From the NCBI GenBank assembly GCA_964383585.1, contig CAYLHQ010000023.1, positions 2,707 to 66,706 of the forward strand: 64,000 nt of DNA, given 5' to 3'. The DNA comes from an uncultured Acidobacteriota bacterium. Lineage in GTDB: Bacteria > Acidobacteriota > Polarisedimenticolia > Polarisedimenticolales > DASRJG01. The position numbers were made by a program, and so were the translations under genes. Position 1 is the first letter of the stretch. Each line of letters begins with the position of its first letter. The notes below the pieces were generated by a model. The model worked only from the letters and a program-made list of their open reading frames with translations, was not told the DNA's origin and searched no databases. Shown piece after piece: positions 2,046 through 40,409 of the stretch.

Positions 2046-3449
2046 GTGCCCTCCGCCGCCCCCGAATCGAGACGGGTGCTGGTCCTCGTCGAGCAGACCG
2101 AGACCCGGCAGCGCCTCGGCACTCTCTTGGCCCGGGTCGGTTTCGCCGCGACCCTCGTGGGGGACGAGACGCAGGGGGCGCGCGCCCTGTCCCGCGAAGA
2201 GCACGATGCCGCGATCGTCGATCTCGACCACGCCCGTCCCGGCGGTCTTGCGGCGCGCCTCCGGCGACAGACTCCCCCGATCCCGGTGCTCGCCCTCGCC
2301 GACCCCGCCCGGTTGAGGGAGGCGGTCGCGGCCCTCCGGGACGCCGCCGACGATTACCTCCTCGCCCCCCCCGATGCGGTCGAACTGCGGACACGCCTCG
2401 GCCGGCTCCTCGACCATCACGATCTCGGTTCGCGGCTCGCCCTCCTCCAGGACGAAGTCTCGAGGAACTTCGGGTACAAAAGCCTCGTCAGCCACTCTCC
2501 CGCGATGCGCGACGTCGTGCAGCGCATCGCGCGGGTCGCCCCGATGCGGGCGACGGTCCTGATCACCGGCGAAAGCGGGGTCGGGAAGGAGCTCGTCGCG
2601 CGCGCGATCCACTTCAACTCGCCCCGGAGGGACTTCCCCTTCGTCGCGATCAACTGCGCCGCCATCCCGACCAGCCTGATCGAGTCGGAACTGTTCGGCC
2701 ACGAGAAGGGGGCCTTCACCGGCGCCCACGCCCGCAACCGGGGGAAGTTCGAGATCGCGAACCGCGGCACCCTCTTCCTCGACGAGATCGGCGAGACCGA
2801 CCTCGCGACCCAGGTCAAGCTCCTCCGGGTCCTCGAGGAGCGGGAGTTCATGCGGGTCGGCGGCGATCGGTCGATCCGGGTCGACGTCCGCGTGATCGCC
2901 GCGACCAACGCGGATCTCGAGACCCTCGTCCACGTCGGCGCTTTCCGCCGCGACCTCTACTACCGCCTCAAGGTCGTGACGATCGCGGTCCCGCCGCTCC
3001 GCGAGCGGCGCAGGGACATCCGGTCGCTCGTCGAAGGGTTCCTGCAGGAGCTCTCCCGCTCGAACGCGGTCCCGATCCGGACGATCACCGCGGACGCCGT
3101 GGAGGCGCTCGAGGGATACCGCTGGCCGGGGAACGTCCGCGAGCTGAAGAACGTCTTGGAGAGCCTCCTGGTCTCGAGCCCCGGGGAGGTGATCCGCCGG
3201 GAGGACCTCCCCCCCTCGATCCAGCGGGAAGGGGCGGGACCGGAGCGCCTCGAGATCCGCCCCGGGATGACGATCGACGAGCTCGAGGCGGCGCTCATCC
3301 GCCGCACCCTCGAGGAGACGGGAGGGAACCGTACTCGCAGCGCGGCGATGCTCGGGATCGGGGTTCGCACCCTCCAGCGGCGGATCCGCGAGCTCGAGAT
3401 CCGGATCCCCCCGACGCGCCGCAGCAGCCGGCGGCGGGCCCTTCCGTGA
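2046..3449 (+). CDS. Sigma-54-dependent transcriptional activator (NtrC family): atypical receiver, AAA+, Fis-type HTH
   Basis: GESGVGKE Walker A, GAFTGA loop, LFLDEIG, WPGNVREL, C-terminal GNRTRSAAMLGIGVRTL HTH. Confidence 0.95.
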   Translation: MPSAAPESRRVLVLVEQTETRQRLGTLLARVGFAATLVGDETQGARALSREEHDAAIVDLDHARPGGLAARLRRQTPPIPVLALADPARLREAVAALRDAADDYLLAPPDAVELRTRLGRLLDHHDLGSRLALLQDEVSRNFGYKSLVSHSPAMRDVVQRIARVAPMRATVLITGESGVGKELVARAIHFNSPRRDFPFVAINCAAIPTSLIESELFGHEKGAFTGAHARNRGKFEIANRGTLFLDEIGETDLATQVKLLRVLEEREFMRVGGDRSIRVDVRVIAATNADLETLVHVGAFRRDLYYRLKVVTIAVPPLRERRRDIRSLVEGFLQELSRSNAVPIRTITADAVEALEGYRWPGNVRELKNVLESLLVSSPGEVIRREDLPPSIQREGAGPERLEIRPGMTIDELEAALIRRTLEETGGNRTRSAAMLGIGVRTLQRRIRELEIRIPPTRRSSRRRALP

Positions 3450-4402
3450 AAGCGCTCGTCTTCGAGGACGGGAAGCCGCGCGTTCTCCTGCGCCCCGACC
3501 CCGATCCGCCGGAAGGGGAAGCGGTCGTGCGCGTCCACCTCGCCGGGATCTGCGGAACCGATCTCGAGATCGCGCGGGGGTACATGGCCTTCGACGGCAT
3601 CCCCGGCCACGAGTTCGTCGGCGTGGTCGAGCGGAGCGCCGACCCCGCGCTCGCGGGGCGCCGGGTCGTCGGGGAGATCAACGCCGCGTGCGGCGCCTGC
3701 CTCACCTGCCGCGCGGGACGCCCGCGCCACTGCCCGAACCGCACGGTGCTCGGAATCGCGGGGCGGGACGGCGCCTTCGCCGAGCGGCTCGCCCTCCCCG
3801 AGCGGAATCTCCACCTCGTCCCCGACGCGCTCCCCGACGCCGCGGCGGTCTTCACCGAACCGATGGCGGCCGCCTGCGAGATCGCCGAGCAGATCCCGGA
3901 TCTCGCCGGCGCGCGCGCGGCGATCGTCGGAGACGGGAGGCTCGCGCGCCTCTGCGCCCGGTTGCTCGCCCGGGAGGGTGCGCCCCCGGAGGTCTGGGGG
4001 AAGTACGAGGAGAAGCTCGTTCGTTTCGAACGGGACGGCCTTCGCACCCATCGGGAAGGCGCGGGAACGGACCGCACGTTCGACGTCGTGGTGGAAGCGA
4101 GCGGCTCTCCCGAAGGGTTCGACCTCGCCCTGCGTCTCGTGCGGCCGTGCGGCACCGTCGTCCTCAAGAGCACCTACCACGGCGCGGCGCCGATCGCGCT
4201 GGCTCCCGTCGTGGTCGACGAGATCCGCGTCGTCGGCTCGCGGTGCGGACCCTTCCCCCCCGCGCTCGCGCGGATCGGAGACGATCCGTCGTTCTTCACG
4301 TCGCTCGTCTCCGACGTGCTGCCCCTCGAGGAGGCGCGGGAGGCCTTCCGGAGGGCGTCGAGCCCCGACGCGTCGAAGGTCCTCTTCGACCTCCGCGCGT
4401 GA
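3446..4402 (+). CDS. Zinc-dependent alcohol dehydrogenase (MDR family)
   Basis: GTG start overlaps the upstream TGA. GICGTD, GHEFVG and CGACLTCRAGRPRHC zinc motifs. Confidence 0.92.
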   Translation: MKALVFEDGKPRVLLRPDPDPPEGEAVVRVHLAGICGTDLEIARGYMAFDGIPGHEFVGVVERSADPALAGRRVVGEINAACGACLTCRAGRPRHCPNRTVLGIAGRDGAFAERLALPERNLHLVPDALPDAAAVFTEPMAAACEIAEQIPDLAGARAAIVGDGRLARLCARLLAREGAPPEVWGKYEEKLVRFERDGLRTHREGAGTDRTFDVVVEASGSPEGFDLALRLVRPCGTVVLKSTYHGAAPIALAPVVVDEIRVVGSRCGPFPPALARIGDDPSFFTSLVSDVLPLEEAREAFRRASSPDASKVLFDLRA

Positions 4403-4409
4403 TTTCGTC

Positions 4410-4439
4410 TTGACATCGAAAAATCGCCTTCCCTATATT
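4410..4439 (+). promoter_or_regulatory. Sigma-70-type promoter of Lys-rich microprotein 1
   Basis: TTGACA (4410-4415), 18-bp spacer, TATATT (4434-4439). Confidence 0.75.
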
Positions 4440-4499
4440 CCGCGGTGACGCATCGCCGTGCGATCGTCGAACGCGATTCGCCGGAAGGAGGTGATCGAC

Positions 4500-4562
4500 A
4501 TGGCGACGAAGAAGAAGGCCGCGAAGAAGAAGGCCACCAAGAAGAAGGCCGCCAAGAAGTAA
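4500..4562 (+). CDS. Lys/Ala-rich microprotein 1 (20 aa, MATKKKAAKKKATKKKAAKK)
   Basis: SD AAGGAGGTG just upstream, ATG...TAA, own promoter and terminator, paralog at 35523-35600. Confidence 0.8.
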   Translation: MATKKKAAKKKATKKKAAKK

Positions 4563-4588
4563 GTCGGCGACCGCAAGGTCGAAACCGA

Positions 4589-6208
4589 TCAAGAGAGATC
4601 AGGGGACGCCCGGAGGGGCGTCCCCCTTTTTTTGTCCATCCGATCGAGGATCGCCTCGAACCGCTCCCCCGCGATCGCCGCGCGCAACCGCGTCCACCGG
4701 CCGGAATACCGCCTGCGAAGCGATTCCGCCTCCGCCTCGAGGCGTTCGAGTCTCGCCTCCGCGCCCGCCCTCGCCCGTTCGGACAGGACCGTTCCGTGCT
4801 TCGCGAGGAACTTCCGGATCTCGTCGGAGGCCACGATCGTGTCCTGGTGGGCGCCGAGATGGTCCTGGAGCGCCGTGAGGCGCCGCACCAGCTCGCGGAC
4901 CCCCTCTCCTCCCAACTCGTCGTGGAACTCGAGGACGTAACGCAGCCGCTTCGCCCGGATCCGCGTGCGGTGGAGCCGCTCCGCCTCCGGGCGCGCGAGC
5001 GCGGCGTCGCCGTCGCGGACAAGTCGGTCCCGCGCGGCACGAGCTTCGGCGGCGACGTGGGAACCGACCGGGTGGAGCGCCGCCTCGGGGAGCGCCTCGA
5101 TCGACCATCCGCGGCAGACGGCGTCGAGAGTCGACAAGAGCCGCAGGTACCTCCCGGAGCGGAGTGCCTCGAGGAGCCGTTCGCGGGCCTCGTCGCGGCG
5201 GCGCTTCAGGTGCGCGAGGAAGGCAGGGAGCGTCCCCGAACCCTCGAAGCGCTCGAGGAGGACGTCGACGTCGCGGACCGCGCCGAGCCGACGCCCCAGC
5301 CAGCGCAGGTCGCGTGCGAGGGCGTCGTGGAGTTCCGGGGTCAGCGCGGGGCGATAGCTGCGGAGCGCCGCCCGGAGGCGCCGCGTCGCCACCCGCATGT
5401 CGTGAAGGTCCTCGGGGTCGCTCCCCTCGCGCGTTCCGGGGTCGTGGCGGCGGAGGCGCTGGAGCTGCCCCGAGAAGACGCGGCGCGCCGAGGTCCGCAA
5501 GGAATCCTCGGGACGGGGCTTCCCCGAGGGGACCTCGGCGAACTCGGCGTCCCCGTGGAGGGCGCGGAGGATCCGCTCGGAGTCTCCCCGCGTCGTCGCC
5601 CGGAGGGAGAACTCCCGTTCGAGACGACGGGCCGCCTCGGCCAGCGCCTCGTCGCGCAGGGTCGCCGACCGAAGCCGGACGACGTGCAGCCGGTGCGGCT
5701 CGTTCGACATCCCCCACCCCTCGACCGTCCAACTCTCGACGGCGAGCCTCCCGGCGAGGCGCCCCTCTCCCCGCACGCGGCCGAGGTCGAGATGCCGGAT
5801 CGACACCGACGCCGACGCCACCGGCTCGAGGGGGCGTCCGGCCGCGAGCGGAAGGAGCCGTTCCCGCAGCGGTCCCTCGGGGATCGGAGGAGGCCCCGCG
5901 AACCGTGCCGGGAGCGGGGCCGAATGCACGTATTCGCGGAGGACGGGGGGCGACGCGGTTTCGCTCCAGGCGAGGACCGCCTCGCGGCGACCGGTCGAAC
6001 GCCTTACGCCCAGCGAAAACCCGTTCCGCGCGAGGGAGCGGAGGTCGGTGTCGTGGAAGGTCCACTGCTCCCGGGCCGCCGCCCGCGGGAGCGCTCGGTA
6101 GCCGGCGATGGACGGGGCGCGAACGATCTCGGCGAGCGTCCTTCCGTCGGGGGCCTCGAGCACCACGCATCCCTCGCGCCCTCCCGCCCGGCGTCCCTTG
6201 CGGCTCAC
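4589..6208 (-). CDS. CYTH-like plus CHAD domain protein (polyphosphate-associated)
   Basis: CHAD motifs EDLHDMRVATRRLRAAL, LHRTRIRAKRLRYVLE and LQDHLGAHQD. N-terminal CYTH-like region (DTDLRSLARNGFSLGVR). Coupled to ppx. Confidence 0.88.
   Translation of the reverse strand: MSRKGRRAGGREGCVVLEAPDGRTLAEIVRAPSIAGYRALPRAAAREQWTFHDTDLRSLARNGFSLGVRRSTGRREAVLAWSETASPPVLREYVHSAPLPARFAGPPPIPEGPLRERLLPLAAGRPLEPVASASVSIRHLDLGRVRGEGRLAGRLAVESWTVEGWGMSNEPHRLHVVRLRSATLRDEALAEAARRLEREFSLRATTRGDSERILRALHGDAEFAEVPSGKPRPEDSLRTSARRVFSGQLQRLRRHDPGTREGSDPEDLHDMRVATRRLRAALRSYRPALTPELHDALARDLRWLGRRLGAVRDVDVLLERFEGSGTLPAFLAHLKRRRDEARERLLEALRSGRYLRLLSTLDAVCRGWSIEALPEAALHPVGSHVAAEARAARDRLVRDGDAALARPEAERLHRTRIRAKRLRYVLEFHDELGGEGVRELVRRLTALQDHLGAHQDTIVASDEIRKFLAKHGTVLSERARAGAEARLERLEAEAESLRRRYSGRWTRLRAAIAGERFEAILDRMDKKRGTPLRASPDLS
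4602..4633 (+). terminator. Rho-independent terminator
   Basis: ggggacgccc-ggag-gggcgtcccc followed by a T tract. Confidence 0.85.
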
Positions 6209-7755
6209 CGCGACCCTCCGACGCGGATCCGCACGGGAACTCCGAGGAGCGCTTCGAGCAGCTCGGTCCGGCGCCCGGCCTCCCAGACCTCGAGCTGGGC
6301 ATCGAGACCGCCGGTCGCGAGCTCGAGGACGAGGCGCTCGCCGCGGCTTCGGACCGTGACGTCCGAAACGACCCCGTACTGCGATCGGTCGAGCCCCTCG
6401 GCGAGCCTCAGGATCGACGCGAGGGCGCGCACCGTCTCCCGGCGCCTGCGGGAGAGCGGAACCGCGTCGCCGGCGCCGTTCTTCGGCTGCCCCTTACGGT
6501 TGTGCAGGCGGGCCACCTGTCCGATCACTTCGATCTCCTCGCGGGTGAATCCCAGGAGATCTCCGTGGACGATCAGGTAATACGAGTGGAGGTGGTGGTT
6601 CTCGTGGGAGATCGCGTGTCCGACGTCATGGAGGAGGGCGGCGTACTCGAGGAGGGCCCGGTCCGCGGGTTCGAGGCGGAGCCGCTCTCGGAGCTGGTCG
6701 AAGAGGCGGAGCGCGAGACGGGCGACCTGGTGGTGGTGGTTCCCGGTGTAGCCGAGCCTCCGGAGGAGGCGCATGACGCTCCGCTTCCGGACGTCCGCGA
6801 ACTTGGCGCTCTCCTCGATCCCCTTCGTGTGGCGGGCGACCCAGTCCATGAGGAGGCCCTCGCGCAGGGCCCACGTGCAGGCGGTGACCCGCTCGGCGCG
6901 GAGCAGGCGGAGGACCCGCTCGGCGAGGGCCGACCCCGCGAGCACGAGATCGACCCGCTTCTGGTCGATCCCCTTCATGCGGAGGCGCTTTTCGCGGTCC
7001 GAACGCTTGAGCGCCTCGTGCAGGTCGAGGAGTCCCTCGGCGGGAACGGCGAGGTTGTGGACGTAGTTTCCGCCGGGGTGGAGGCCCAGACGGTGGGCCG
7101 CCATCGCGATCAGCGAGAGCATCGTGCCCGAGGTCCCGACGACCCGGACGATCCCCCGGTCGGCGAGCGGCTCGAGGACCGGGCGGAGCTGCTCGTCGAG
7201 GTGGGCGCGCAGCCGTTTGAACGCCCGCTCCGTCGGAGGATCGGCGTCGAGGTACGCCTCGCTGAGCCGGGCCACCCCGAGCTTCAGGCTGTGCATCGCG
7301 GTGGGCTGCCCCCCCTCGACCGCGATCACCTCGACGCTCCCTCCCCCCGCGTCGACGATCAGGACCGGCTCGCTTCGGAGGTCGAGAGAGTTCGCGACAC
7401 CGAGCCAGACGAGACGCGCCTCCTCGCGGCCGGGGATGACCCGGACCCGGAGGCCGACTTCGTCCTTGACCCGCTGGAGGAAATCGCCGCCGTTCCGGGC
7501 CTCCCGCACGGCGCTCGTCGCAACCGTCCGGAATCGCGTGACCCCCTGCCGCTCGGCGAGGGTGCGGAAAGCGGCGAGGGTGCGCACCCCCTGGTCCATC
7601 GCGGCGCGGGTGAGGTTTCCCGTGGTGAGGGAGCGGCGGCCGAGCCTCACCATCTCCTTCGCGCGGTCCAAGACGCGGAAGTGCCCTTCCGGCTCGACCT
7701 CGGCGACGAGCATGTGGATCGAGTTGCTTCCGACGTCGATCGCCGCGATTCGCAT
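6205..7755 (-). CDS. ppx: Ppx/GppA family exopolyphosphatase with HD domain
   Basis: IAAIDVGSNS, ATSAVREARNG, GREEARL, DAGGGSVE, LREG and C-terminal LLHDVG. Confidence 0.93.
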   Translation of the reverse strand: MRIAAIDVGSNSIHMLVAEVEPEGHFRVLDRAKEMVRLGRRSLTTGNLTRAAMDQGVRTLAAFRTLAERQGVTRFRTVATSAVREARNGGDFLQRVKDEVGLRVRVIPGREEARLVWLGVANSLDLRSEPVLIVDAGGGSVEVIAVEGGQPTAMHSLKLGVARLSEAYLDADPPTERAFKRLRAHLDEQLRPVLEPLADRGIVRVVGTSGTMLSLIAMAAHRLGLHPGGNYVHNLAVPAEGLLDLHEALKRSDREKRLRMKGIDQKRVDLVLAGSALAERVLRLLRAERVTACTWALREGLLMDWVARHTKGIEESAKFADVRKRSVMRLLRRLGYTGNHHHQVARLALRLFDQLRERLRLEPADRALLEYAALLHDVGHAISHENHHLHSYYLIVHGDLLGFTREEIEVIGQVARLHNRKGQPKNGAGDAVPLSRRRRETVRALASILRLAEGLDRSQYGVVSDVTVRSRGERLVLELATGGLDAQLEVWEAGRRTELLEALLGVPVRIRVGGSR

Positions 7756-18471: not shown

Positions 18472-21400
18472 CTACGGGCAGACCACCCCGACCCGCTCGA
18501 CCCCGTTCGAGCGGTAGCCGAGGGTTCCGTTTCCGCAGGGATTGCTTCCACGGACGAGGTAGTGGAAGACCTGACCCGCCGCCGGAACGGTGGCGTCCGT
18601 CGCCTGGGTGTCCGCGTCGTTCTTCTCGACACAGGTCGCGATGGTGAAGTCCGACGCGGAGGTCGAACGGACGACGTCGTATCCGAGGTTGTTGAACGTG
18701 AGCCCGGTCCAGGAGAAGAGGTCCTTGCTCACGAAGGAAACCCCTTCGACTTCGTCCGGAACGGCGTTCGGGAAGTTGACGGTGTCGCACACGGGGAAGT
18801 ACCCGAGCCGCGACAGGGTCGACCAGCCGATCGCCCAGTTGTTCGGGTTCGCGAACGCTCCGCGGTAGGACGCCGGCTCGAAGAAGCCGTCGACCGGGGC
18901 CGCCTTCGCGTTCGTCTTGAGGCTGCTGCCGTCGGACGGCCTGGGGTCGATCACGACCGTCGGGTTCGGCTTGGTCGCGTCGGCGAGCGTTTCTCGGACG
19001 AGCGTTCGGATGGGAAGGGCCGAACCGCAGGTCAGGTACTCGTTCGCGAGCGAGGCGTTCGAGAACACGTCGAGGAACGACCGGCCCCGGTGGATCTTCC
19101 CGGTGTCCCCGCCGTAAGTCACGCCTTCATCCACGCAGGTCTCGCCCACGGGGCAGTCGGCGTTCGTGCAGCAGGCCTGTGTCGTCGTCACGCTGCACGT
19201 CGCGCCCGGCACCCGGTTCGGAATCGACTCCGACCCCGCGCACCACCACGAGTTGTTCGAGAAGAACAGCTCCTTGTCGTTCGCCTCGTCCGGAGCGAGG
19301 TAGTACACCCCGTCCGCCACGTAGTTCGTGTTGTACCGCTCGCCGGACGATCCGGCGCCCTGGCAGCTCGTGCCCGTCCCCTCGACCAGCATCGTCGCGC
19401 CGCCGAAATCGAGGAATGCGCTGTTGTAGTACCGCGCCCCGGCGTTGTCTCGAATGTGCAGTGCGGCGTTCTTCAGACGGTCGGTGTAGGTCTTCTGGCC
19501 CTGACCCACCATCGTCACGTTGTAGAAGACGGGGGTCGTCCGCGGGAGACTCGTGTCGGGCCCGTTCCCCCCGTCGTGCTCCCCGCCCTTGTCCGACTTG
19601 TCGGGACCGGGAAGGCCCTGGAGGATGAACGCGTATTGGACCTTCCCGCGCCACCCCTCGTCGTAGTCGAGGCCGTCGTCCCCGCAGGCCGCCCCGATGA
19701 AGTGCTTCAGATTGGCCGCCCCGCCGAACCACTCGACGCAGTCGTCCTTGTTCTGGACCACCTCGATGTAGTCGAGGTCGGTCTCCCGGCCCACCGCGCC
19801 GAGCGTCAGGCCGTTGATCTCGTTGTTGCCGCCGATCACGAACCCGCCGTAGCGGAGCGACGTGTAGGTCACCGCCCCGCTGTCGCCGTCGTCGCAGTTC
19901 CGGCCGTAGGGGCCAGGGAGGAACGCCGCGCAGTTCCCGTAGAGACCCTTCCCCGCGTTCGGGTCGAGACCCTCGATCTGGAACTCCCGCGTCGGGTCGG
20001 GACCGGCCGCCGTGTTGTTCGCCACGTACCCGTATCCGAGGAGGATCAGGCCGCCCCAGTTCGACGTGAGCGCACGGGCGGTTGCGGCGCTGTCGTAGGG
20101 AGCGGTCCCCGGGAAGCCCCGCACGTTGTCGTCGTCGAGGTCGGTGAAGACGATCGGCTTTTCCGCAGTGCCGCGGGCGACGATCTTCGCCCCACGGGTG
20201 ATGATGAGGGCACCGGGGTCCTTGGCGCCGGCGGAAGACTCCGGCTCGTTTCGGACGACCGTCCCGGGCTCGATCGTGAGCGTGGCGCCGTTCGTCACGT
20301 AGACCTGGTTCTGGAGGACGTACTCGTTGTCGGCGGTCCAGGTCTGGCTGCTGGTGATGTCGGCCGAGACGTTGACCTGAGTCCGCGGCGGGAAGTATCC
20401 GAGCCTCGAGAGGGTCGACCAACCTTCCGCCCAGTTCGACGTCCCGAAAGCGCCCCGGTAGGAGACCGGCTCGAAGAACCCGTCGACCGGCGTGGCCTTC
20501 ACGTTCGCGAGGAGAGGCGAACCCGTCGCCGGCCTCGGGTCGATCGAATTGACGGGATCCGGCTTGCTCGCGTCGAGCAGGGCCTCGCGTCCGAGAGCCC
20601 GGATCGGGAGGGCCGAACCGCAGGTCAGGTACTCGTTCGCGAGCGAGGCGTTCGAGAACACGTCGAGGAACGACCGGCCCCGGTGGATCTTCCCGGTGTC
20701 CCCGCCGTAAGTCACGCCTTCATCCACGCAGGTCTCGCCCACGGGGCAGTCGGCGTTCGTGCAGCAGGCCTGTGTCGTCGTCACGCTGCACGTCGCGCCC
20801 GGCACCCGGTTCGGAATCGACTCCGACCCCGCGCACCACCACGAGTTGTTCGAGAAGAACAGCTCCTTGTCGTTCGCCTCGTCCGGAGCGAGGTAGTACA
20901 CCCCGTCCGCCACGTAGTTCGTGTTGTACCGCTCGCCGGACGATCCGGCGCCCTGGCAGCTCGTGCCCGTCCCCTCGACCAGCATCGTCGCGCCGCCGAA
21001 ATCGAGGAATGCGCTGTTGTAGTACCGCGCCCCGGCGTTGTCTCGAATGTGCAGTGCGGCGTTCTTCAGACGGTCGGTGTAGGTCTTCTGGCCCTGACCC
21101 ACCATCGTCACGTTGTAGAAGACGGGGGTCGTCCGCGGGAGACTCGTGTCGGGCCCGTTCCCCCCGTCGTGCTCCCCGCCCTTGTCCGACTTGTCGGGAC
21201 CGGGAAGGCCCTGGAGGATGAACGCGTATTGGACCTTCCCGCGCCACCCCTCGTCGTAGTCGAGGCCGTCGTCCCCGCAGGCCGCCCCGATGAAGTGCTT
21301 CAGATTGGCCGCCCCGCCGAACCACTCGACGCAGTCGTCCTTGTTCTGGACCACCTCGATGTAGTCGAGGTCGGTCTCCCGGCCCACCGCGCCGAGCGTC

Positions 21401-29419: not shown

Positions 29420-30112
29420 ATGGAAAAGCTCCAGCGCCATTTCGAAGAGCAGCTCGACATCCTCTCCGAGAAGATCCTGGTCATGGGAGGGCTCGTCGAG
29501 GAGGCGATCGGGAAGTGCGTCGCCGCGCTCGTCGACCGCGACTCGGACCTCGCCCGCGCCGTGATCGCGGAAGACGCGAGGGTCGATCGTCTGGAGCTCG
29601 AGATCGACCAGATCTGCACGAGCATCCTCGCCCTGCAGCAGCCGTTCGCAAGGGACCTCCGGTTCGTGACGACGGCCATGAAGATCACGACCGATCTCGA
29701 ACGGATCGCCGACCTGGCGGTCAACATCTGCGAGCGCGCCCTCGAGCTGAACGAGGAGCCCCAGTTGAAGCCCCTCGTCGACATCCCCGTCATGGCGCGC
29801 AAGGCGCAGGAGATGGTCCGGGGCGCGCTCGACGCCTTCGTCCAGCGCGACCCCGACTCGGCCCGCGCGGTGATCCGGATGGACGACACGCTCGACGCCC
29901 GGATGGAGCAGGTCTTCCGGGAACTCCTCTCCTACATGATGGAGGACCCCAAGACGATCACCCGGGCCCTCCGCCTGATCTTCGTCGCGAAGTCGTTCGA
30001 GCGGATCGGCGACCAGGCGACGAACATTTGCGAGCAGGTGGTCTACATGACCGAGGGCCGGGTGATCAAGCACCCGTACCTCTCCTCCGGAGACCGAGCG
30101 CACGAAGCCTGA
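29420..30112 (+). CDS. phoU: Phosphate signalling complex protein PhoU
   Basis: LALQQPFARDLR, DLERIADLAVNI, ERIGDQATNICE. Confidence 0.95.
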   Translation: MEKLQRHFEEQLDILSEKILVMGGLVEEAIGKCVAALVDRDSDLARAVIAEDARVDRLELEIDQICTSILALQQPFARDLRFVTTAMKITTDLERIADLAVNICERALELNEEPQLKPLVDIPVMARKAQEMVRGALDAFVQRDPDSARAVIRMDDTLDARMEQVFRELLSYMMEDPKTITRALRLIFVAKSFERIGDQATNICEQVVYMTEGRVIKHPYLSSGDRAHEA

Positions 30113-30114
30113 CC

Positions 30115-30807
30115 ATGGCGCGCATCCTGATCATCGAGGACGACTCGGACATCGCGCTCTCGCTCAAGCACATCCTCGAGCGGGAGGGCGACCACTCGGT
30201 CTCCGTCGCCGCCGACGGGACCGAGGGCCTCCGCGCGGCCCTGTCCCCCCCCGTCCCGAACCTCGTCCTCCTCGACCTGAGTCTCCCCGGCTTGGACGGC
30301 ACCGAGGTCTGCCGACGGATCCGGAAGGAGCCGGCGACGGCCGGGGTCTCGGTGATCATGTTGACCGCGCGCGTCGAAGAGGCGGACCGCGTCCGCGGGC
30401 TCGATCTCGGCGCCGACGACTACGTCACCAAGCCGTTTTCGGTGAAGGAGGTCGTCGCCAGGGTCCGGGCGGTGCTGCGCCGGACCGAGCGGGCCGAGGG
30501 AGCGCCGGAACAGCTCGCCGACGGACCGATCCGGGTCGATCTCGCCGCGCGCCGCGTCCACGTGGACGCGAAGGAAGCGGTCCTGACCCGGAAGGAGTTC
30601 GACCTGCTCGTCGAGATGATGCGGCATCGGGGCCGGGTGCTGACCCGTGAGCGGCTCCTCGAGGGGGTCTGGGGGTACGACTACCCCGGCGAGACCCGCA
30701 CGGTCGACGTGCACATCCGCCGCCTCCGCAAGAAACTCGGGGAGGCTGCGGAGGAGCGGATCGAGACCGTCGTCGGCGTCGGCTACCGTTGGAAGCGGCC
30801 GGCTTGA
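30115..30807 (+). CDS. phoB: Phosphate regulon response regulator (PhoB/PhoP)
   Basis: Receiver plus winged helix (TRTVDVHIRRLRKKL, TVVGVGY), between phoU and phoR. Confidence 0.88.
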   Translation: MARILIIEDDSDIALSLKHILEREGDHSVSVAADGTEGLRAALSPPVPNLVLLDLSLPGLDGTEVCRRIRKEPATAGVSVIMLTARVEEADRVRGLDLGADDYVTKPFSVKEVVARVRAVLRRTERAEGAPEQLADGPIRVDLAARRVHVDAKEAVLTRKEFDLLVEMMRHRGRVLTRERLLEGVWGYDYPGETRTVDVHIRRLRKKLGEAAEERIETVVGVGYRWKRPA

Positions 30808-32204
30808 GCGCACACGGTCGATCGGCCGCGCTCCTCGCCGCGGCGGCGGCCATCGGCGGCGCGGCCGTCGCCGTCGCGGTCCGTCTCGCCCTCGGCGGGC
30901 CGGGCTCCTTCGCCCCGCTCCTCGCCGCGGCGCTCGTCTCGGCGGCGCTCCCGGCGGCGGCGGCATGGATCCTCCTGCGGCGTCTTTCCTGCCCGGTGAC
31001 GCGGTTGACGGAAGTCGCGGGGAAGGTCGCCTCGGGCCGCCTCGACGTCGAGATCCCCTCGTTCCGGGACGACCAAGCCGACGACCTCGCCGACGCCCTC
31101 CGCCGGATGCGCGACGCGCTCGTCGTGAAGATCGGGGAGTCGGAGGACGGCCGGCGCCTCGCCCTTACCGTCCTCGCGGGGATGCGGGAGGGGCTCATCT
31201 GGACCGGCCCCGACCGGAAGATCCGCCTTGCGAACGACGCGTTCCGGCAGATCTTCTGCGGGGGCCAGGACCCGACCGATCATCTCCTCGCGGAAATCGT
31301 CAGAAGCCCGGCGGTGATCCGGGAGCTCGAGCAGGCGATCCAGACCGGCCGCGAAGTCCGCGAACTGGTGCTCCAGCACCCGCCAGGGTCGGGGCGGACC
31401 TTCGAAGTCCACGTCACCCCTTTCGCGGAGCGCCCCGGGGAGAAAGAGTCCGGCGCGATCGTCCTCTTCTTCGACATCACCCGGCTCGAGGCGCTCGAAC
31501 GGGTCCGCCGCGACTTCGTCTCGAACGTCTCGCACGAGCTCCGCACCCCGCTCACCTCGATCAAGGCCTTCATCGAGACCCTCCTCGAGGACGGACTCGA
31601 GGACCGTGCGTCGAGCCTTCGCTTTCTCGGCATCGTCCGGAAGAACGTCGAACGGATGGAAGAACTGATCGACGACCTCACCGATCTCTCGCAGATCGAG
31701 ACCGGCGCCGTCGCCCTCGAACTCCGGGAGATCGACGCCCGCGAGGTGGCCCGGGAAGTCGCCGCCCATCTCGAGCCCCGGCGCGCCGCCTCGGGGGTCG
31801 AGGTGCGCGTCGAGGTCCCTCCCGGCTTCCTTCTGCGCGCCGACCGTCGGCGTCTCGAGCAGATCCTCGTCAACCTCCTCGACAACGCGATCAAGTTCAA
31901 CAGGACCGGCGGATGGGTGCGCGTCGAGGGCGGGCACGAAGGCGGACGGCCTTTCCTCGCCGTGACGGACAACGGCCCCGGCATCCCGGCGGACAGCCAC
32001 GAGCGGATCTTCCAGCGGTTCTACCGGGTCGACAAGGCACGCGCCCGCGAGGTCGGGGGCACGGGGCTCGGCCTGTCGATCGTGAAGCACCTGATGCTGC
32101 TCCACGGCGGAACCGTACGCGTCGAGTCGGAGCTGGGGAAAGGGTCCCGCTTCGTCCTCGAGTTCCCCGCTCTTCCGGTCAAGGAGCCGACCGCCCGAAC
32201 GTGA
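30804..32204 (+). CDS. phoR: Phosphate regulon sensor histidine kinase (HAMP-PAS-HisKA-HATPase)
   Basis: VSNVSHELRTPLTSI, NLLDNAIKF, FYRVDKARAR, GTGLGLSIV. Start uncertain (TTG 30789 or 30804). Confidence 0.9.
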   Translation: MSAHGRSAALLAAAAAIGGAAVAVAVRLALGGPGSFAPLLAAALVSAALPAAAAWILLRRLSCPVTRLTEVAGKVASGRLDVEIPSFRDDQADDLADALRRMRDALVVKIGESEDGRRLALTVLAGMREGLIWTGPDRKIRLANDAFRQIFCGGQDPTDHLLAEIVRSPAVIRELEQAIQTGREVRELVLQHPPGSGRTFEVHVTPFAERPGEKESGAIVLFFDITRLEALERVRRDFVSNVSHELRTPLTSIKAFIETLLEDGLEDRASSLRFLGIVRKNVERMEELIDDLTDLSQIETGAVALELREIDAREVAREVAAHLEPRRAASGVEVRVEVPPGFLLRADRRRLEQILVNLLDNAIKFNRTGGWVRVEGGHEGGRPFLAVTDNGPGIPADSHERIFQRFYRVDKARAREVGGTGLGLSIVKHLMLLHGGTVRVESELGKGSRFVLEFPALPVKEPTART

Positions 32205-32871
32205 TCCGCTCGGGGGTGTACGGGACGGGCTCCGGAATCGGCGGCGGGCTCCCCGACTTCGAGATTCGGATCGAGCGGATCTCCACCGGGGCTCCCGGCC
32301 GGCCCTCCCGGTCGACCGGGGTCGCACAGATCGCGTCAACCGTCTCCTTCCCGTCCACCACCACCCCGAAGCAGGGGAATCTCGCGTTGAGGTAGGGCTG
32401 CGCGGTGCGGGTCACGAAGAAGAGCGCGGCGCTGATCTTCCCTCCTCCCGACCGCGTCATCCCCATGCGATACGGGTAGGTGAAGTCGACCGGCCCCCTC
32501 TCGAGGGGGACGTAGACGAGCGGATACCCGCGGCCGGTCCCCGTGCGGTCCCCCGCCTCGATCCGCTCTCCGGTCGCGATCTTGTGGACGAGGACGCCGT
32601 CGTAGTACGGCTCCTTTCGGGTGCGGCCGGTCTCGGTGTCGACCCATTCGAGCCGGCCTTCGGCGAAGGCGGCGAAATGGGCGACCGTCTGAGGGGCCTG
32701 CTCGACGAGAAGACGGACCGTGAACGTCCCCTTCGACGTGTCGACGACTGCGTACCATCCCTCCGGAAGCGCCTCCGCGGCTTTCGGGGCCGCCGGGGCT
32801 TCGACGGCGAGCGCGGAGAGCGGGAGCGCGGCGACGATGAAAAGGGTCCATGCCGACTTCGGGACGGTCAT
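32179..32871 (-). CDS. Secreted cyclophilin-type peptidylprolyl isomerase homolog (divergent active site)
   Basis: DTSKGTFTVRLL, APQTVAHFAAFAEG, PYYDGVLVHK, FGVVVDGKETVDAI. Confidence 0.82.
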   Translation of the reverse strand: MTVPKSAWTLFIVAALPLSALAVEAPAAPKAAEALPEGWYAVVDTSKGTFTVRLLVEQAPQTVAHFAAFAEGRLEWVDTETGRTRKEPYYDGVLVHKIATGERIEAGDRTGTGRGYPLVYVPLERGPVDFTYPYRMGMTRSGGGKISAALFFVTRTAQPYLNARFPCFGVVVDGKETVDAICATPVDREGRPGAPVEIRSIRISKSGSPPPIPEPVPYTPERITFGRSAP

Positions 32872-32901
32872 CGCTTGCGATCGTCGCACGCCCCCGCTGG
32901 A

Positions 32902-33892
32902 GAGGCAAATCAACGTGGCCGCGAGGTTGTTGGGGGATGGAACGCTCGAGGTGGCGCGAAGGGTGGGGAGGACTCGCGCCGCGCAGGAGGCCGAAGTTGC
33001 GGTGGGTGTGACAGTTCCAGCGCCACGCCCGTGGCAACCGACCCGAGACCGCGCTTTCGGGACGGGGCGGGACCGGTACCCGGAGGACCCAACGCAACTT
33101 CGGCCCGGCCGATCGCGACCCGATTCGCCGGCGACCGGCAGGCGGAAAGCGCGGGGAACGCGCACGCCCCAACCCACAATCTCGCGGCCACGTTGGAGGC
33201 AAATCAACGTGGCCGCGAGGTTGTTGGGGGATGGAACGCTCGAGGTGGCGCGAAGGGTGGGGAGGACTCGCGCCGCGCAGGAGGCCGAAGTTGCGGTGGG
33301 TGTGACAGTTCCAGCGCCACGCCCGTGGCAACCGACCCGAGACCGCGCTTTCGGGACGGGGCGGGACCGGTACCCGGAGGACCCAACGCAACTTCGGCCC
33401 GGCCGATCGCGACCCGATTCGCCGGCGACCGGCAGGCGGAAAGCGCGGGGAACGCGCACGCCCCAACCCACAATCTCGCGGCCACGTTGCACGGAATCCA
33501 ACGTGGCCGCGAGGTTGTTGGGGGATGGAACGCTCGAGGTGGCGCGAAGGGTGGGGAGGACTCGCGCCGCGCAGGAGGCCGAAGTTGCGGTGGGTGTGAC
33601 AGTTCCAGCGCCACGCCCGTGGCAACCGACCCGAGACCGCGCTTTCGGGACGGGGCGGGACCGGTACCCGGAGGACCCAACGCAACTTCGGCCCGGCCGA
33701 TCGCGACCCGATTCGCCGGCGACCGGCAGGCGGAAAGCGCGGGGAACGCGCACGCCCCAACCCACAATCTCGCGGCCACGTTGCACGGAATCGCCGACTT
33801 GCGCTCCATTTCCGCGTCCTCGGACGGTCCGGCTGCCCGGACGGCCCGTCCGAAGGCGGACCGTCCCCGCCCACAACCTCGCGGCCACGTTG
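32902..33892. repeat. Array of three identical 285-bp elements with 20-bp terminal inverted repeats (period 294 bp), plus a solo fourth right-end repeat; MITE/REP-like
   Basis: Units 32911-33195, 33205-33489 and 33499-33783. Ends caacgtggccgcgaggttgt...acaatctcgcggccacgttg, separated by 9-bp spacers. Solo acaacctcgcggccacgttg at 33873-33892. Confidence 0.9.
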
Positions 33893-33949
33893 GTTTGAAT
33901 CGGGCCTCCTCAGGACCCATATTCCGGACGACCGAGGGAGGGAAACCGA

Positions 33950-35374
33950 TTGGCCCAGCTCGACCCGATGCTGCGCGCCCTCGTCGACCGGGGCGCGGGC
34001 AGCCTCGAGCTCGCCGAAGGGGGGCGACCGACGTTCCGGTTCCCGCAGGGAGATCGTCCGGTCTCGCAGGCCGTCCTTTCCCGTGCCCAGATCCTCACGC
34101 TCGTCGGCGAACTGTCCGGCAAACCCGTCGTGCCGGGTCGGGACGGGGGTCCGTCGGAGTTCGTCTACGCGACGCCGGACGGCCGTGCCTTCACCTGCCG
34201 CACCGAATCGGGCGATGGAGGAATCCGGGTCCGGATCGCCCCGGCGGCCGGGACCGGAGCCGAGAGACCGGCCCCCGCGCGCGAGGGGGCCCCGGAGATC
34301 GAGCGCTACCTTGCGCGGCTCGTCGAATCGGGGGCGAGCGACCTCCATCTGAGCACCGGAGAGGTGCCGATGGTCCGCCTTCACGGCGAGATGGGAAAGC
34401 TCGAGGGGGAAAAGCCGCTGACCCCCGAACAGGCGGCCCGGCTCATCTATCCGATCGTCCCTCCCGGGAACAAGCAGGCATTCGAGGAGACGAGCGACTC
34501 CGACTTCGCCTACGAGATCCCAGGGCTCGCCCGCTTCCGCTGCAACATCTTTCAGGATCGGAAGGGGCTCGGTGCGGTCTTCCGCGTGATCCCGAGCAAG
34601 ATCCCCTCCGCCGCCGACCTCAACCTGCCGCAGTCGCTTCTCGATCTCTGCGCGCTGCCGAAAGGGCTCGTCCTCGTGACCGGTCCGACCGGGTCGGGAA
34701 AGTCGACCACCCTCGCTGCGCTGGTCGACCACGTGAACCGTACGCGCACCGACCACATCATCACGATCGAGGACCCGATCGAGTTCGTGCACGAGAACCG
34801 GAAGTGTCTCATCAACCAGAGGCAGGTCGGGCTCCACACCCGTGACTTCAAGCAGGCCCTGCGCGCGGCGCTCCGCGAGGACCCCGACATCGTCCTCGTC
34901 GGCGAGATGCGCGACCTCGAGACGATCGCGATCGCGATCGAGACGGCGGAGACCGGCCACCTCGTCTTCGGGACGCTCCACACCTCCACCGCGCCTTCGA
35001 CCGTCGACCGGATCATCGACCAGTTCCCGGCTGACCGTCAGTCACAGATCCGCGTGATGCTCTCCGAATCGCTCCGGGGGGTCGTCTCGCAAAACCTCCT
35101 CCGCCGGAAGGAAGGGGGCCGGGTGGCGGTCATGGAGATCCTGATCGGGATCCCCGCGATCGCGAACCTGATCCGCGAGGGAAAGACGTTCCAGATCCCG
35201 AGCATCATGCAAACCGGCAAGAAGCACGGGATGGTGCTGCTCAACGACGCGCTCGCCGACCTCGTCCGCAAGGGAATCGTGACTGCGGACGAGGCGCTCG
35301 CGAAGGCCGTCGACAAGAACGGCCTCGCTGCGCTCCTGCGAGGAGCCTCCGCATCGGCCGCCGCCCCCTCCTGA
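33950..35374 (+). CDS. pilT: Type IV pilus retraction ATPase PilT/PilU family with N-terminal extension
   Basis: GPTGSGKSTTLAA, ITIEDPIEF, ALREDPDIVLVGEMRDLET, GTLHT, ANLIREGKTFQI. Confidence 0.9.
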   Translation: MAQLDPMLRALVDRGAGSLELAEGGRPTFRFPQGDRPVSQAVLSRAQILTLVGELSGKPVVPGRDGGPSEFVYATPDGRAFTCRTESGDGGIRVRIAPAAGTGAERPAPAREGAPEIERYLARLVESGASDLHLSTGEVPMVRLHGEMGKLEGEKPLTPEQAARLIYPIVPPGNKQAFEETSDSDFAYEIPGLARFRCNIFQDRKGLGAVFRVIPSKIPSAADLNLPQSLLDLCALPKGLVLVTGPTGSGKSTTLAALVDHVNRTRTDHIITIEDPIEFVHENRKCLINQRQVGLHTRDFKQALRAALREDPDIVLVGEMRDLETIAIAIETAETGHLVFGTLHTSTAPSTVDRIIDQFPADRQSQIRVMLSESLRGVVSQNLLRRKEGGRVAVMEILIGIPAIANLIREGKTFQIPSIMQTGKKHGMVLLNDALADLVRKGIVTADEALAKAVDKNGLAALLRGASASAAAPS

Positions 35375-35399
35375 CTGCGACCCGGGTCGTCGCTTTTTC

Positions 35400-35427
35400 T
35401 TGACACAGATTCACCACCCTATATATT
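35400..35427 (+). promoter_or_regulatory. Sigma-70-type promoter of Lys-rich microprotein 2
   Basis: TTGACA (35400-35405), 16-bp spacer, TATATT (35422-35427). Confidence 0.7.
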
Positions 35428-35522
35428 GGGTGGCGATTTGGGGAGGTCCCCAGATCTTGAGCCCAGGAACTCCCGGCCACGGGCTCGAACGAATGCACGG
35501 GAGAGGCAAGGAGTCCGACACG

Positions 35523-35600
35523 ATGGCCACCAAGAAGAAGGCCGCCAAGAAGAAGGTCGCGAAGAAGAAAGTCGCCAAGAAGAAGGCTGCCAAGAAGTAA
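35523..35600 (+). CDS. Lys/Ala-rich microprotein 2 (25 aa, MATKKKAAKKKVAKKKVAKKKAAKK)
   Basis: SD AAGGAG upstream, same MATKKKAAKKK start as 4500-4562, own promoter and terminator. Confidence 0.8.
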   Translation: MATKKKAAKKKVAKKKVAKKKAAKK

Positions 35601-35631
35601 ACAGGCAACAGATCTCAGGCCGTCACGAGGA

Positions 35632-35661
35632 GGGCCGGCGCTCAGGCGCCGGCCCTTTTTT
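35632..35661 (+). terminator. Rho-independent terminator
   Basis: gggccggcgc-tcag-gcgccggccc followed by TTTTTT. Confidence 0.85.
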
Positions 35662-36104
35662 CATGCGCCGTTCGTCCCGGTGTCGCTCAGGTCGATCAGA
35701 CGAATCCCGAGCTGTCTCGCCACCTCGATGCTCCGCGTGTCCCGGTAGAATTCGCCGTAGTAGATCTCGCGGATCCCCGCGTTTGCGATCAGTTTGAAGC
35801 AGTTCCAGCAGGGGGAGGCGGTCGTGTACAGCTCGGCGCCGTCGATTCGGACGCCGTTCTTCGCCGCCTGGATGATCGCGTTCGCCTCGGCGTGCACCGT
35901 CGCCACGCAGTGGCCGTTCTCCATGAGGTGGCCGACCTCGTCGCAGTGCGGCATCCCCCGGATCGATCCGTTGTACCCCGTCGAGAGGATCGTCTTGTCT
36001 CGCACGATGACCGCGCCCACGTTCTTCCGGTCGCAGGTCGATCGCGTGGCGGCCTGCCGCGCGATGTTCATGAAGTAGGTGTGCCAGTCAACCCGCTTGG
36101 ACAC
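35661..36104 (-). CDS. dCMP deaminase / ComEB family protein
   Basis: STCDRKNVGAVIV, GYNG, HAEANA and SPCWNC zinc motifs. Confidence 0.92.
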   Translation of the reverse strand: MSKRVDWHTYFMNIARQAATRSTCDRKNVGAVIVRDKTILSTGYNGSIRGMPHCDEVGHLMENGHCVATVHAEANAIIQAAKNGVRIDGAELYTTASPCWNCFKLIANAGIREIYYGEFYRDTRSIEVARQLGIRLIDLSDTGTNGA

Positions 36105-36232
36105 GGTCCCTCCGTTCGCGTGGAGCCCGCGAATCGTACACCACGCGGCTTGACAGGGAACCGGACCGCCGCGAAACTGCGGCGGTGCGGTCGACCGGGC
36201 GACCGGACCGGCCTGGGAGGGGGGACCCGGCC

Positions 36233-37012
36233 ATGCGTGAAGACTCCGGAGAGACCGCGCTCGGGCAGGATGCGCTGACCGCGTACCTGCGGAGGATCCG
36301 CCGCATCGATCTCCTCACGCGGAGCGGGGAGTTCCGGCTCGCGACCCTTCAGAGGCTCGATCCGGCATCGCCCGAGGCGAAGGCCGCGCGGGAGCGCCTC
36401 GTCGAGTCGAACCTCCGCATCGTGGTCAAGCTCGGCCACGAGTACCGGGGACGGGGAGTCTCGGTCGACGACCTGATCTCCGAGGGAAACCTCGGACTGA
36501 TCGAGGCCGCGGCCCGTTTCGACCCCTCGCGAGGGGTGCGCTTCGTGACCTACGCCGTGTGGTGGGTGCGGAAGTTCATGCTCGGCGCGATCCGGAGGAG
36601 CGCGAGGCAGCGGTTCGCCCCGATGTCGGGCACGGATGCGTTCGCGCCCGACATGCGCAGCTCCGCGGAGCACGATTTCTCTTCGCTACGGCGGGCGGTC
36701 CTCTCCCTCGACGGCGGCGCCGCGCCGGGGGCAGGCCCGCGACGGGGCCAGGAGTCGGCGACTTCGGAGCGCGCTCCCGATCCCGAGACCCACGCGGTCG
36801 ACCAACAGATGGAGGGAGCGCTCCGGAGAATCCTGGGGAAACTGCCCGCGCAGGAGCGACGGGTCTTGACCGCCCACTACGGACTCGACGGGTCGCCACC
36901 CCGCACACTCCAGCAGATCGGGGACGAGCTGGGGATGACGCGCGAGCGCGTGCGGCAGATCGAGTTACGGGCGAGGGGCCGGGTGCTGCGACTGCTCAGA
37001 CGAGGCCTTTAG
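36233..37012 (+). CDS. Short RNA polymerase sigma-70 factor (RpoD/RpoS/RpoH-like)
   Basis: Region 1.2 LTAYLRRIRRIDLLT, region 2 LVESNLRIVV...DLISEGNLGLIEAAARFD...FVTYAVWW, region 4 TLQQIGDELGMTRERVRQIE. Confidence 0.9.
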   Translation: MREDSGETALGQDALTAYLRRIRRIDLLTRSGEFRLATLQRLDPASPEAKAARERLVESNLRIVVKLGHEYRGRGVSVDDLISEGNLGLIEAAARFDPSRGVRFVTYAVWWVRKFMLGAIRRSARQRFAPMSGTDAFAPDMRSSAEHDFSSLRRAVLSLDGGAAPGAGPRRGQESATSERAPDPETHAVDQQMEGALRRILGKLPAQERRVLTAHYGLDGSPPRTLQQIGDELGMTRERVRQIELRARGRVLRLLRRGL

Positions 37013-37155
37013 GGAAGGGGGACAGGCACCGCCCCTCGGGCGGAGCCAATCCCCGGCTCAGGGAAGGGGGACAGGCACCGCCCCTCGGGCGGAGCCAGTC
37101 CCCGGCTCAGGGAAGGGGGACAGGCACCGCCCCTCGGGCGGAGCCAGTCCCCGGC
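37011..37155. repeat. Three tandem 49-bp REP-like palindromic units between convergent genes
   Basis: Units start at 37011, 37060 and 37109: agggaagggggacaggcaccgcccctcgggcggagcca(a/g)tccccggctc. Each unit folds as a hairpin. Confidence 0.88.
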
Positions 37156-37156
37156 G

Positions 37157-39732: not shown

Positions 39733-39845
39733 GCGCCGAGCCCCTCCCCACCCGCGATCGATCGACCCTTCGCCGGCCTTACCTCCGGCGCCCGCGACAA
39801 AATCTAGGCACCGATCGCCCCGAGGCAAGGCGGGCGGGAATGTCG

Positions 39846-40409
39846 CTACCGTTGCCCCGTGACGACGCCGGTTTCCCAGGTGATACCGGCCTTCGACTGC
39901 GGCGGTGTCTGCCCGTCGAAGAGCGCCGCGTTCTCGAAGGTCAGGCGGAAGCTCCCCACCTCCTTGACCCGGAAGCTGAGGCGGATCATCGGTGCGGGCG
40001 TCGAGACGTTCACCGTACCGACGTTCCCGTTCCTGGAGACTCCGGCCACGACGCGCCCCGCGACCGGGTTCTCGACCTGGTAGGTCGGGGTGTGGCTCCC
40101 CTGCTCGAAGACGGTGCCGGCGGAATGGCCGAGATAGGTCAGCTTCGTCGAGTCGAAAGTCACGTCGAAGGCCGCGGCGTAAAGCCCCGTCGTCTGCGAG
40201 ACGTTGACGTGGACCGTGACCGAGTCCCCGCTCTTCGAACCTTCCGCCATGGCGACCGTGTTCGAGCCGGGAGACGGCTCGTCGGCGACGAAGGCTGCGA
40301 GGAGCGGAGGGGTCGTCACCCCGCCCGAGGAATCGCCGCCTCCTCCGCCTCCGCAGGCGGTCGCGACGGCGAGGAGAGCGAACGAACACGCGGTCGAAAA
40401 GCGCCCCAT
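39846..40409 (-). CDS. Cohesin-domain lipoprotein
   Basis: Lipobox VATAC plus Gly linker. GDSVTVHVNV..TGLYAAAFDVTFDSTKLTY...IRLSFRVKEVG...LTFENAALFD matches the cohesin pattern. Confidence 0.75.
   Translation of the reverse strand: MGRFSTACSFALLAVATACGGGGGGDSSGGVTTPPLLAAFVADEPSPGSNTVAMAEGSKSGDSVTVHVNVSQTTGLYAAAFDVTFDSTKLTYLGHSAGTVFEQGSHTPTYQVENPVAGRVVAGVSRNGNVGTVNVSTPAPMIRLSFRVKEVGSFRLTFENAALFDGQTPPQSKAGITWETGVVTGQR

Follow-up and report, generated by a model that had tools for sequence, protein, structure and literature searches.

The closest described counterparts of the element analyzed here, a 20-codon lysine-rich micro-gene (copy 1) of an uncultured Acidobacteriota bacterium, are the H1-like Lys/Ala proteins and tails, including AlgP, the C-terminal domain of PhaF, the mycobacterial HupB tail, and the chlamydial Hc1 and Hc2. 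Copy 1 lies in a 64,000-nucleotide stretch of contig CAYLHQ010000023.1 (the window, meaning the whole stretch that was analyzed). Low-complexity Lys/Ala repeats with a very high positive charge are common to the H1-like sequences and the copy-1 peptide, as is their presumed disorder. For the described examples, binding to DNA, RNA, or polyphosphate-associated structures has been documented (PMC12818456, PMC9239181); AlgP associates with polyphosphate granules (PMC9239181), and the KPAA tail of PhaF, which is lysine-rich and disordered, binds RNA (PMC12818456). Unlike the H1-like proteins, the peptide described here comprises 20 residues without a folded partner domain and is encoded separately, between a promoter and a terminator of its own. 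The KPAA-repeat proteins of the AlgP/PhaF type carry approximately 20-30 tandem KPAA tetrads within, or making up, a larger protein, whereas the copy-1 peptide contains no proline, is built of KKKAA/KKKAT pentads at 3.5 repeats per 20 residues, and is not of this type. Nor did it match the family hidden Markov models of HC2/Hc1.

Two further groups of described systems resemble the locus in part. The dual-function small RNAs (sRNAs) SgrS/SgrT and SR1/SR1P likewise combine a transcript of approximately 190 nucleotides, an own promoter, an intrinsic terminator, and a tiny open reading frame (ORF), but the members examined here share no common base-pairing target or RNA module, and their peptide is conserved across lineages. 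Very small basic ribosomal proteins include eL41 (25 residues), bTHX (26), bL37 (24), bS22 (33), and bL36 (38). These are comparable to the peptide in size, strong basic charge, and the strength of the expression signals, and among the relatives one clade is located behind rplU-rpmA; however, they are arginine-rich, non-repetitive, of fixed length, and seen in ribosome structures, while the peptide is Lys/Ala-repetitive and variable in length. No sequence match to bS22, bL37, bTHX, bL36, or bL34 was found in NCBIfam, Pfam, or the PDB.

We found that copy 1 and a second micro-gene in the same window (copy 2) belong to a widespread, unannotated family whose products begin with MATKKKAAKKK. A stand-alone, promoter-to-terminator gene for an oligolysine-like peptide of 13-25 residues that is retained across lineages is not described in the databases and literature searched. 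Nine micro-peptides from the window and its relatives were all absent from an exact look-up in a collection of 15 billion proteins. Pfam, with PF07382 and PF07432 included, gave no match for the 20-, 25-, and 39-residue peptides, and relatives of 85 and 88 residues reached only about 7 bits against PF07382 (E = 7-10; cut-off 40). Neither NCBIfam families nor PDB chains matched the peptides at E values up to 10. No gathering-score match to Rfam 15 was obtained in the whole window, and positions 4380-4660 and the relative L082 yielded chance-level Rfam matches only (E > 0.3). The literature search returned nothing relevant on MATKKKAAKKK or KKKAAKKK peptides.

Anatomy and conservation of the window copies

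The earlier note on this DNA had described copy 1 as a complete gene with a promoter, Shine-Dalgarno sequence, ORF, GCAA hairpin, and terminator, and every one of these elements was recovered at its position. They are listed below, with reference to L002, an uncultured Acidobacteriota metagenome-assembled genome that is the closest genome match for the neighboring CHAD gene (85% amino-acid identity).

4410-4415, plus strand: -35 hexamer TTGACA, read directly and identical in L002
4434-4439, plus strand: -10 hexamer TATATT, 18 nucleotides after the -35 hexamer (promoter scan)
4446-4499, plus strand: 5' untranslated region (UTR), its start at about 4446 placed from the position of the -10 hexamer
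4485-4493, plus strand: Shine-Dalgarno sequence AAGGAGGTG, 6 nucleotides 5' of the ATG
4500-4562, plus strand: micro-ORF MATKKKAAKKKATKKKAAKK, 20 codons and a stop (ATG at 4500, TAA at 4560-4562)
4568-4581, plus strand: stop-proximal hairpin cgacc-GCAA-ggtcg with a 5-bp stem, identical in L002
4602-4632, plus strand: intrinsic terminator with stem 4602-4625, GGAG loop, and T7 (scan)

The promoter, TTGACA-N18-TATATT, matches the sigma-70 consensus at 11 of 12 positions in the promoter scan. The terminator stem comprises 10-11 bp (10 pairs, 9 of them G-C) followed by CTTTTTTT, and was also scored on the minus strand. The GCAA hairpin was present in the minimum-free-energy and centroid folds alike, positions 4453-4469 of the 5' UTR were predicted to pair with the region from the Shine-Dalgarno sequence to the start codon, and the whole transcript folded better than shuffled sequence (z = -4.4). 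Lysine makes up 11 of the 20 residues of the peptide. The peptide weighs 2.19 kDa, carries a computed net charge of approximately +10.5, and lacks amphipathic patterning.

We confirmed that these signals and the run of lysine codons are far beyond chance, because the G+C content falls to 55-60% at the locus against a background of about 72%, because AAR accounts for 1.3% of the trinucleotides in the window such that at least 11 AAR in 20 codons are expected approximately 3e-11 times per window, and because only two 11/12 promoter matches occur in the 62 kb scanned, one before each micro-ORF copy. The claim that such AT-rich signals are improbable by chance was thus upheld. The statement that the ORF is absent from the ORF list was incorrect, as its frame is listed there as a 34-residue GTG-start ORF (4458-4562). 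Gene calling for the source assembly had yielded nothing at the locus.

A scan for lysine-rich reading frames identified the second micro-gene at 35400-35661, with a layout like that of copy 1 and a 5' UTR of approximately 95 nucleotides:

35400-35427, plus strand: promoter TTGACA-N16-TATATT, 11/12, the only promoter-like match in 30000-42000
35508-35513, plus strand: Shine-Dalgarno sequence AAGGAG, 9 nucleotides 5' of the ATG
35523-35600, plus strand: micro-ORF MATKKKAAKKKVAKKKVAKKKAAKK, 25 codons and TAA (ATG at 35523, stop at 35598-35600)
35632-35661, plus strand: intrinsic terminator, a G+C-rich hairpin of about 15 bp with a TCAG loop and T6 (fold)

The UTRs of the two copies are not alike, and the peptide is their common part. 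A 35-residue reading of copy 2 from an upstream ATG matched only its orthologue P0001 in a search of protein representatives.

The earlier note had pointed to conservation in relatives as a check, and this was borne out in the closest relative as well as in the wider family. L002 carries copy 1 at the syntenic place with an identical peptide, and its assembly also holds copy 2 at the syntenic place (P0001/L202). Positions 4403-4588 are 98.4% identical to L002 (3 differences in 186 nucleotides) compared to 86.3% for the flanking 5.5 kb (binomial P of approximately 6e-9 for the excess). The three differences are located in the promoter spacer, in a synonymous change (GCC>GCG at 4535), and 3' of the hairpin, and positions 4450-4499 of the 5' UTR are 100% identical. 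Orthologous contigs of about 93% identity were encountered in four further metagenomes; among the best-supported variants listed for these, none fell in 4391-4583, whereas the flanking genes vary throughout. Compared to L202, the copy-2 ORF carries five synonymous changes and a single V>A, its UTR is approximately 92% identical, and its terminator keeps the stem with an altered loop.

The gene upstream of copy 1, on the same strand and ending at 4402, is of the zinc-dependent alcohol-dehydrogenase type. The CHAD gene (4589-6208, minus strand, PF05235) is convergent with copy 1, and beyond it lie the Ppx gene (6205-7755, minus strand) and, also opposite to copy 1, genes for an OmpR-type response regulator, a TPR protein, and TonB/ExbBD. 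Copy 1 is therefore not co-transcribed with CHAD-ppx. The last 12-14 CHAD codons, ending in ...KKRGTPLRASPDLS and the stop, pass through the copy-1 terminator hairpin (4589-4632). None of the four nucleotide differences from L002 (4595, 4598, 4613, and 4615, located in the loop and farther on) alters the encoded CHAD sequence, which indicates that the stretch is constrained both as a terminator and as CHAD coding sequence. Copy 2 has a T2SSE-type ATPase gene on one side and, on the other, a convergent gene for cytidine deaminase; a sigma-70 factor is encoded farther on.

The micro-gene family and its expression

The family was collected by scanning metagenomes with a degenerate DNA pattern for MATKKKAAKKK, and at least 120 contigs were recovered. 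We defined its members by the N-terminal MATKKKAAKKK, a length of 13-39 codons of lysine-rich pentads, and an own intrinsic terminator after the stop, all of which copy 1 possesses. Across the contigs, the micro-ORFs mostly span 13-29 codons. Among the matches listed, 83 of 124 encode MATKKKAAKKKKH or MATKKKAAKKKKKH (13 or 14 residues); other members have 17-39 residues, such as ...KKKATKKKH, ...KKKATKKKAAKKK, ...KKKAGGKKKAAKKR, and ...KKKAAPKKKAAKKKK, and a few matches are the N-termini of long K/A-repeat proteins (61 to more than 123 residues), which look like H1-like proteins. Viral contigs gave only three pattern matches, each the N-terminus of a long protein.

Most of the small members have their own TTGACA-type promoter, a 5' UTR of 60-110 nucleotides, a Shine-Dalgarno sequence, the ORF, often a stop-proximal hairpin, and a terminator. 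A strict terminator was detected within 130 nucleotides for 78 of the 104 small ORFs among the matches listed. In 73 distinct transcripts of the 13/14-residue type, compensatory changes occurred in 11 of 11 terminator pairs, and the stem was 86% paired compared to approximately 50% when partners were slid; the stop-proximal hairpins of these relatives were 90% paired. RNAalifold found no consensus structure for the 5' UTRs of the 73 mixed transcripts, an alignment that is too heterogeneous. It was also noted that the 13/14-residue terminator hairpins contain CACCUCC, resembling the 16S anti-Shine-Dalgarno sequence (L082 3138-3173; columns 297-325 of the aligned terminators). RNAalifold pairs the GGAGG of the Shine-Dalgarno sequence with the 5' arm of the terminator, which may be trivial since a GGAG-containing stem always faces CUCC.

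Micro-genes of 13-14 codons encoding MATKKKAAKKKK(K)H were found in many soil, peat, and permafrost contigs (L082-L201) and fall into at least four UTR subgroups. In several lineages the UTRs are unalignable while the peptide is identical. Two loci (L109 and L129) encode the copy-1 peptide of the window with one additional lysine (21 residues) and have differing UTRs. The 17-residue member L094 (...KKKATKKKH) lies in the same thiolase/UvrD-like context as the 14-residue group and bridges the KKKAT type of the window and the 14-residue type inside one syntenic context, which indicates that length changes through the gain or loss of pentads. A further variant was seen in 13 low-G+C, Bacteroidota-like loci (L088, L100, L110, L113, L134, L145, L150, L153, L161, L162, L178, L180, and L190), where the micro-ORF is co-oriented with rplU-rpmA, sits approximately 110 nucleotides behind it, and forms the end of the unit together with a terminator. 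This variant has 23-39 residues (MATKKKAAKKKAAPKKK...) and no Shine-Dalgarno sequence, and a PolX/PHP-type gene comes next; the best matches of the adjoining L27 are the bL27 chains 9i5t and 7jil, from Bacteroidota ribosomes. The remaining contexts were varied, with Dps-like, thiolase, helicase-nuclease, and glycosyltransferase genes.

We assessed whether the family is maintained at the level of the peptide or of the RNA. In the 23-residue subgroup, at codons left unfixed by the search pattern, 11 of 12 third positions varied compared to none of the 24 first and second positions. Codons 12-20 of copy 1 differ from L109/L129 by four synonymous and no non-synonymous changes. Unconstrained basic codons were AAA or AAG, with AGA solely as the last codon, and AAY and other AGN codons were never encountered; this restriction fits Lys/Arg rather than an Hfq-type (ARN) RNA motif. 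All indels in the family are in frame, and the translation signals match the host, with strong Shine-Dalgarno sequences in the high-G+C lineages and none in the low-G+C Bacteroidota-like lineage. The third-position variation, basic-codon restriction, in-frame indels, and host-matched translation signals together favor a translated peptide as the product. The description of copy 1 as a stand-alone, protein-coding Lys/Ala micro-gene is likewise supported by the retention of the peptide as UTRs diverge, the synonymous nature of the differences, and the wide distribution of the family. Copy 1 could also have a role at the RNA level, because its 5' UTR shows complete conservation along with predicted pairing to the region of the start codon.

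Transcription of relatives was evident in metatranscriptomes. For the 13-residue relative L082 (small ORF at 3064-3105), RNA contigs from peat, permafrost, and soil cover approximately 2985-3173 at depths of up to 269 with zero signal in the flanks; they end at the T-run of the terminator, and in one of them an adapter is present at the 5' end. Relatives of the L082 type are thus discrete RNAs of about 190 nucleotides. A copy-2 orthologous RNA was recovered as a contig of 169-170 nucleotides (35449-35618, approximately 95% identical) in three metatranscriptomes, and signal from the flanking genes was absent. RNA matches to copy 1 were confined to its Lys/Ala-coding core and represent cross-matching from many other K/A-rich mRNAs, and one 393-nucleotide RNA contig spans the copy-1 unit yet extends past both of its ends.

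As a separate observation, hundreds of distinct contigs per run in runs X25, X31, X38, X70, and X77 matched only the AAGAAGAAGGCNGCN core (4497-4572 and 35516-35610). The summed depths of these core matches reach the thousands, which makes Lys/Ala-repeat coding RNAs, as a class, highly abundant in RNA from soil and sediment.

Candidate functions of the peptide

While the gene itself is well supported, its function is what we infer from these features. On balance, we lean toward copy 1 being an independently transcribed and translated micro-gene whose product would act as an abundant, diffusible polycation that binds nucleic acids. The near-consensus sigma-70 promoter would drive an RNA of approximately 190 nucleotides comprising the 5' UTR, the strong Shine-Dalgarno sequence, the 20 codons, the small hairpin, and the terminator. 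The 20-residue peptide, probably of 19 residues after removal of the methionine, would be too short and too repetitive to fold, and its length would shift within the family (13-39 codons) by gain or loss of KKKxx pentads. It would be made in quantity and, as a diffusible polycation, would bind polyanions through charge. The likeliest partners would be RNA, the ribosome, or the nucleoid, as for Lys/Ala tails or very small basic ribosomal proteins; binding of DNA, RNA, or polyphosphate by such a peptide is chemically plausible.

Several points weigh against this interpretation. No metatranscriptome RNA contig was found that covers the copy-1 UTR, and translation of copy 1 in vivo, like the abundance of the peptide, is something we infer from its signals and codon pattern. 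The description of the gene as strongly expressed-looking thus applies to its signals, and the proposed check for a transcript was answered for relatives and copy-2 orthologues, with copy 1 itself matched in the coding core only. The 100% conservation of the copy-1 5' UTR appears to exceed what a plain mRNA would need. The search pattern fixes the first 11 residues, so that the true breadth of the family and its N-terminal variability are not captured. The contexts of family members are heterogeneous, and the binding partner is a suggestion by analogy with other basic proteins. The ribosomal-operon link comes from one clade and would count as one evolutionary event, and in a search of PDB chains no solved ribosome was found to hold such a chain.

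A broader reading, which we regard as tentative, is that the micro-genes could form a multi-phylum class of the shortest stand-alone protein genes known in bacteria (13-39 codons), their oligolysine-like products being abundantly produced and acting as genetically encoded, polyamine-like counter-ions or as a missed component of the ribosome or nucleoid. Such genes would have been overlooked because they are invisible to gene callers, to Pfam, and to tryptic proteomics. Should production of the peptides match what the signals imply, an abundant class of gene products in at least two phyla of soil and sediment bacteria would escape standard methods: gene callers apply a length cut-off above their size, profile databases do not accommodate sequences of such low complexity, and trypsin would shred them ahead of mass spectrometry. 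Present in many copies, a free oligolysine would influence the charge balance of nucleic acids, the behavior of the nucleoid or ribosome, and the formation of condensates. The family also offers a clean, testable case of selection on a product of 13-25 residues and would be of use as a positive control in small-ORF discovery.

The main rival explanation, which we consider unlikely, is that the peptide serves the ribosome specifically, as a component or assembly factor similar to eL41, bTHX, bL37, or bS22, rather than being a general polycation. The 13 Bacteroidota-like loci, in which the micro-ORF closes the rplU-rpmA unit, point in this direction, as do the consensus promoters and strong Shine-Dalgarno sequences, the abundance of relatives in metatranscriptomes, and the size and charge that the peptide has in common with the known tiny basic ribosomal proteins. 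However, neither window copy lies in a ribosomal operon and the 13/14-residue groups are not near translation genes either, a range of 13-39 residues set by repeat number is unusual for a fixed rRNA binding site, and no similarity to a PDB chain or to an NCBIfam or Pfam ribosomal family was found. The bL38 protein of Flavobacterium was considered for the ribosomal-operon context and rejected as a different protein of 5.6 kDa behind bL28/bL33.

It is improbable that the peptide is a counter-ion or organizer of polyphosphate granules functionally tied to CHAD and Ppx, a link that the earlier note had raised from the position of copy 1. Copy 1 adjoins CHAD-Ppx in both the window and L002, AlgP provides a precedent as a Lys/Ala/Pro-repeat protein associated with polyphosphate granules (PMC9239181), and PPK2 with poly-Lys C-terminal tails in Chloroflexota CHAD loci indicates that lysine-rich sequences accompany polyphosphate enzymes elsewhere. 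Against this link, copy 1 is convergent with these genes and has its own promoter and terminator, copy 2 lies elsewhere with no polyphosphate genes in its neighborhood in the window, no CHAD or Ppx homologue occurred in the 748 kb fetched around the 120 metagenome family loci listed, and none of 79 more distant CHAD loci contained a MATKKKAAKKK micro-ORF. The adjacency recurs only in L002, where it is uninformative because synteny is expected in a close relative. The CHAD/Ppx adjacency of copy 1 therefore looks coincidental.

We noted in addition that the PPK2 adjacent to CHAD in Chloroflexota/Anaerolineae loci end in poly-Lys tails of 15-40 residues (L008 5618-6523, L014 5783-6694, L025 5813-6604, and L039 7217-7999; also L006, L021, L045, and L073). 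Other lysine-rich ORFs near Chloroflexota CHAD loci encode 42 (L025), 57 (L069), 137 (L036), and 148 (L055) residues. The PPK2 tails are a possible polyphosphate-binding device and are unrelated to the MATKKKAAKKK family.

We give even less credence to the idea that the transcript acts mainly as an RNA, either as an Hfq-type sRNA or sponge or as an antisense RNA to the 3' end of the CHAD mRNA, with an ORF that is secondary or only stabilizing. The (AAG)n runs can be read as (ARN)n motifs next to a U-tailed terminator, the copy-1 unit including its UTR is 98-100% conserved and has a more stable fold than shuffled sequence, the terminator shares sequence with the last CHAD codons, and the relatives are discrete small RNAs. 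Yet the UTRs are unrelated among paralogues and lineages while the peptide is kept, the third-position-only variation and the restriction to AAA/AAG/AGA are features of codons and not of ARN motifs, and the indels are always in frame. The family also occurs in a Bacteroidota-like lineage, and Bacteroidota, to our knowledge, generally lack Hfq. No Rfam match was obtained for the window or L082, and the copy-2 terminator hardly overlaps its convergent gene. The antisense reading of copy 1 was rejected.

That the ORF is the lysine-rich leader peptide of an attenuator sensing the supply of Lys-tRNA is close to refuted, since the 11 lysine codons followed by hairpins and a terminator are only superficially like a his or trp leader, the gene downstream of each copy is convergent rather than co-oriented, as it also is in the 13/14-residue relatives, and the folds contain a terminator with no antiterminator pairing.

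Two further sites in the window were noted outside of the micro-genes. An intergenic region at 48980-49149 contains back-to-back promoter-like sites matching at 10 of 12 positions, TTGACA-N18-TATCGT on the minus strand and ATGACA-N18-TATAGT on the plus strand, and carries a TATATATA run at approximately 49099. An identical 23-nucleotide hairpin-forming sequence, GAGTTGTTCGAGAAGAACAGCTC, occurs at 19250-19272 and 20843-20865, 1593 nucleotides apart, and this pair probably reflects a duplicated gene segment.

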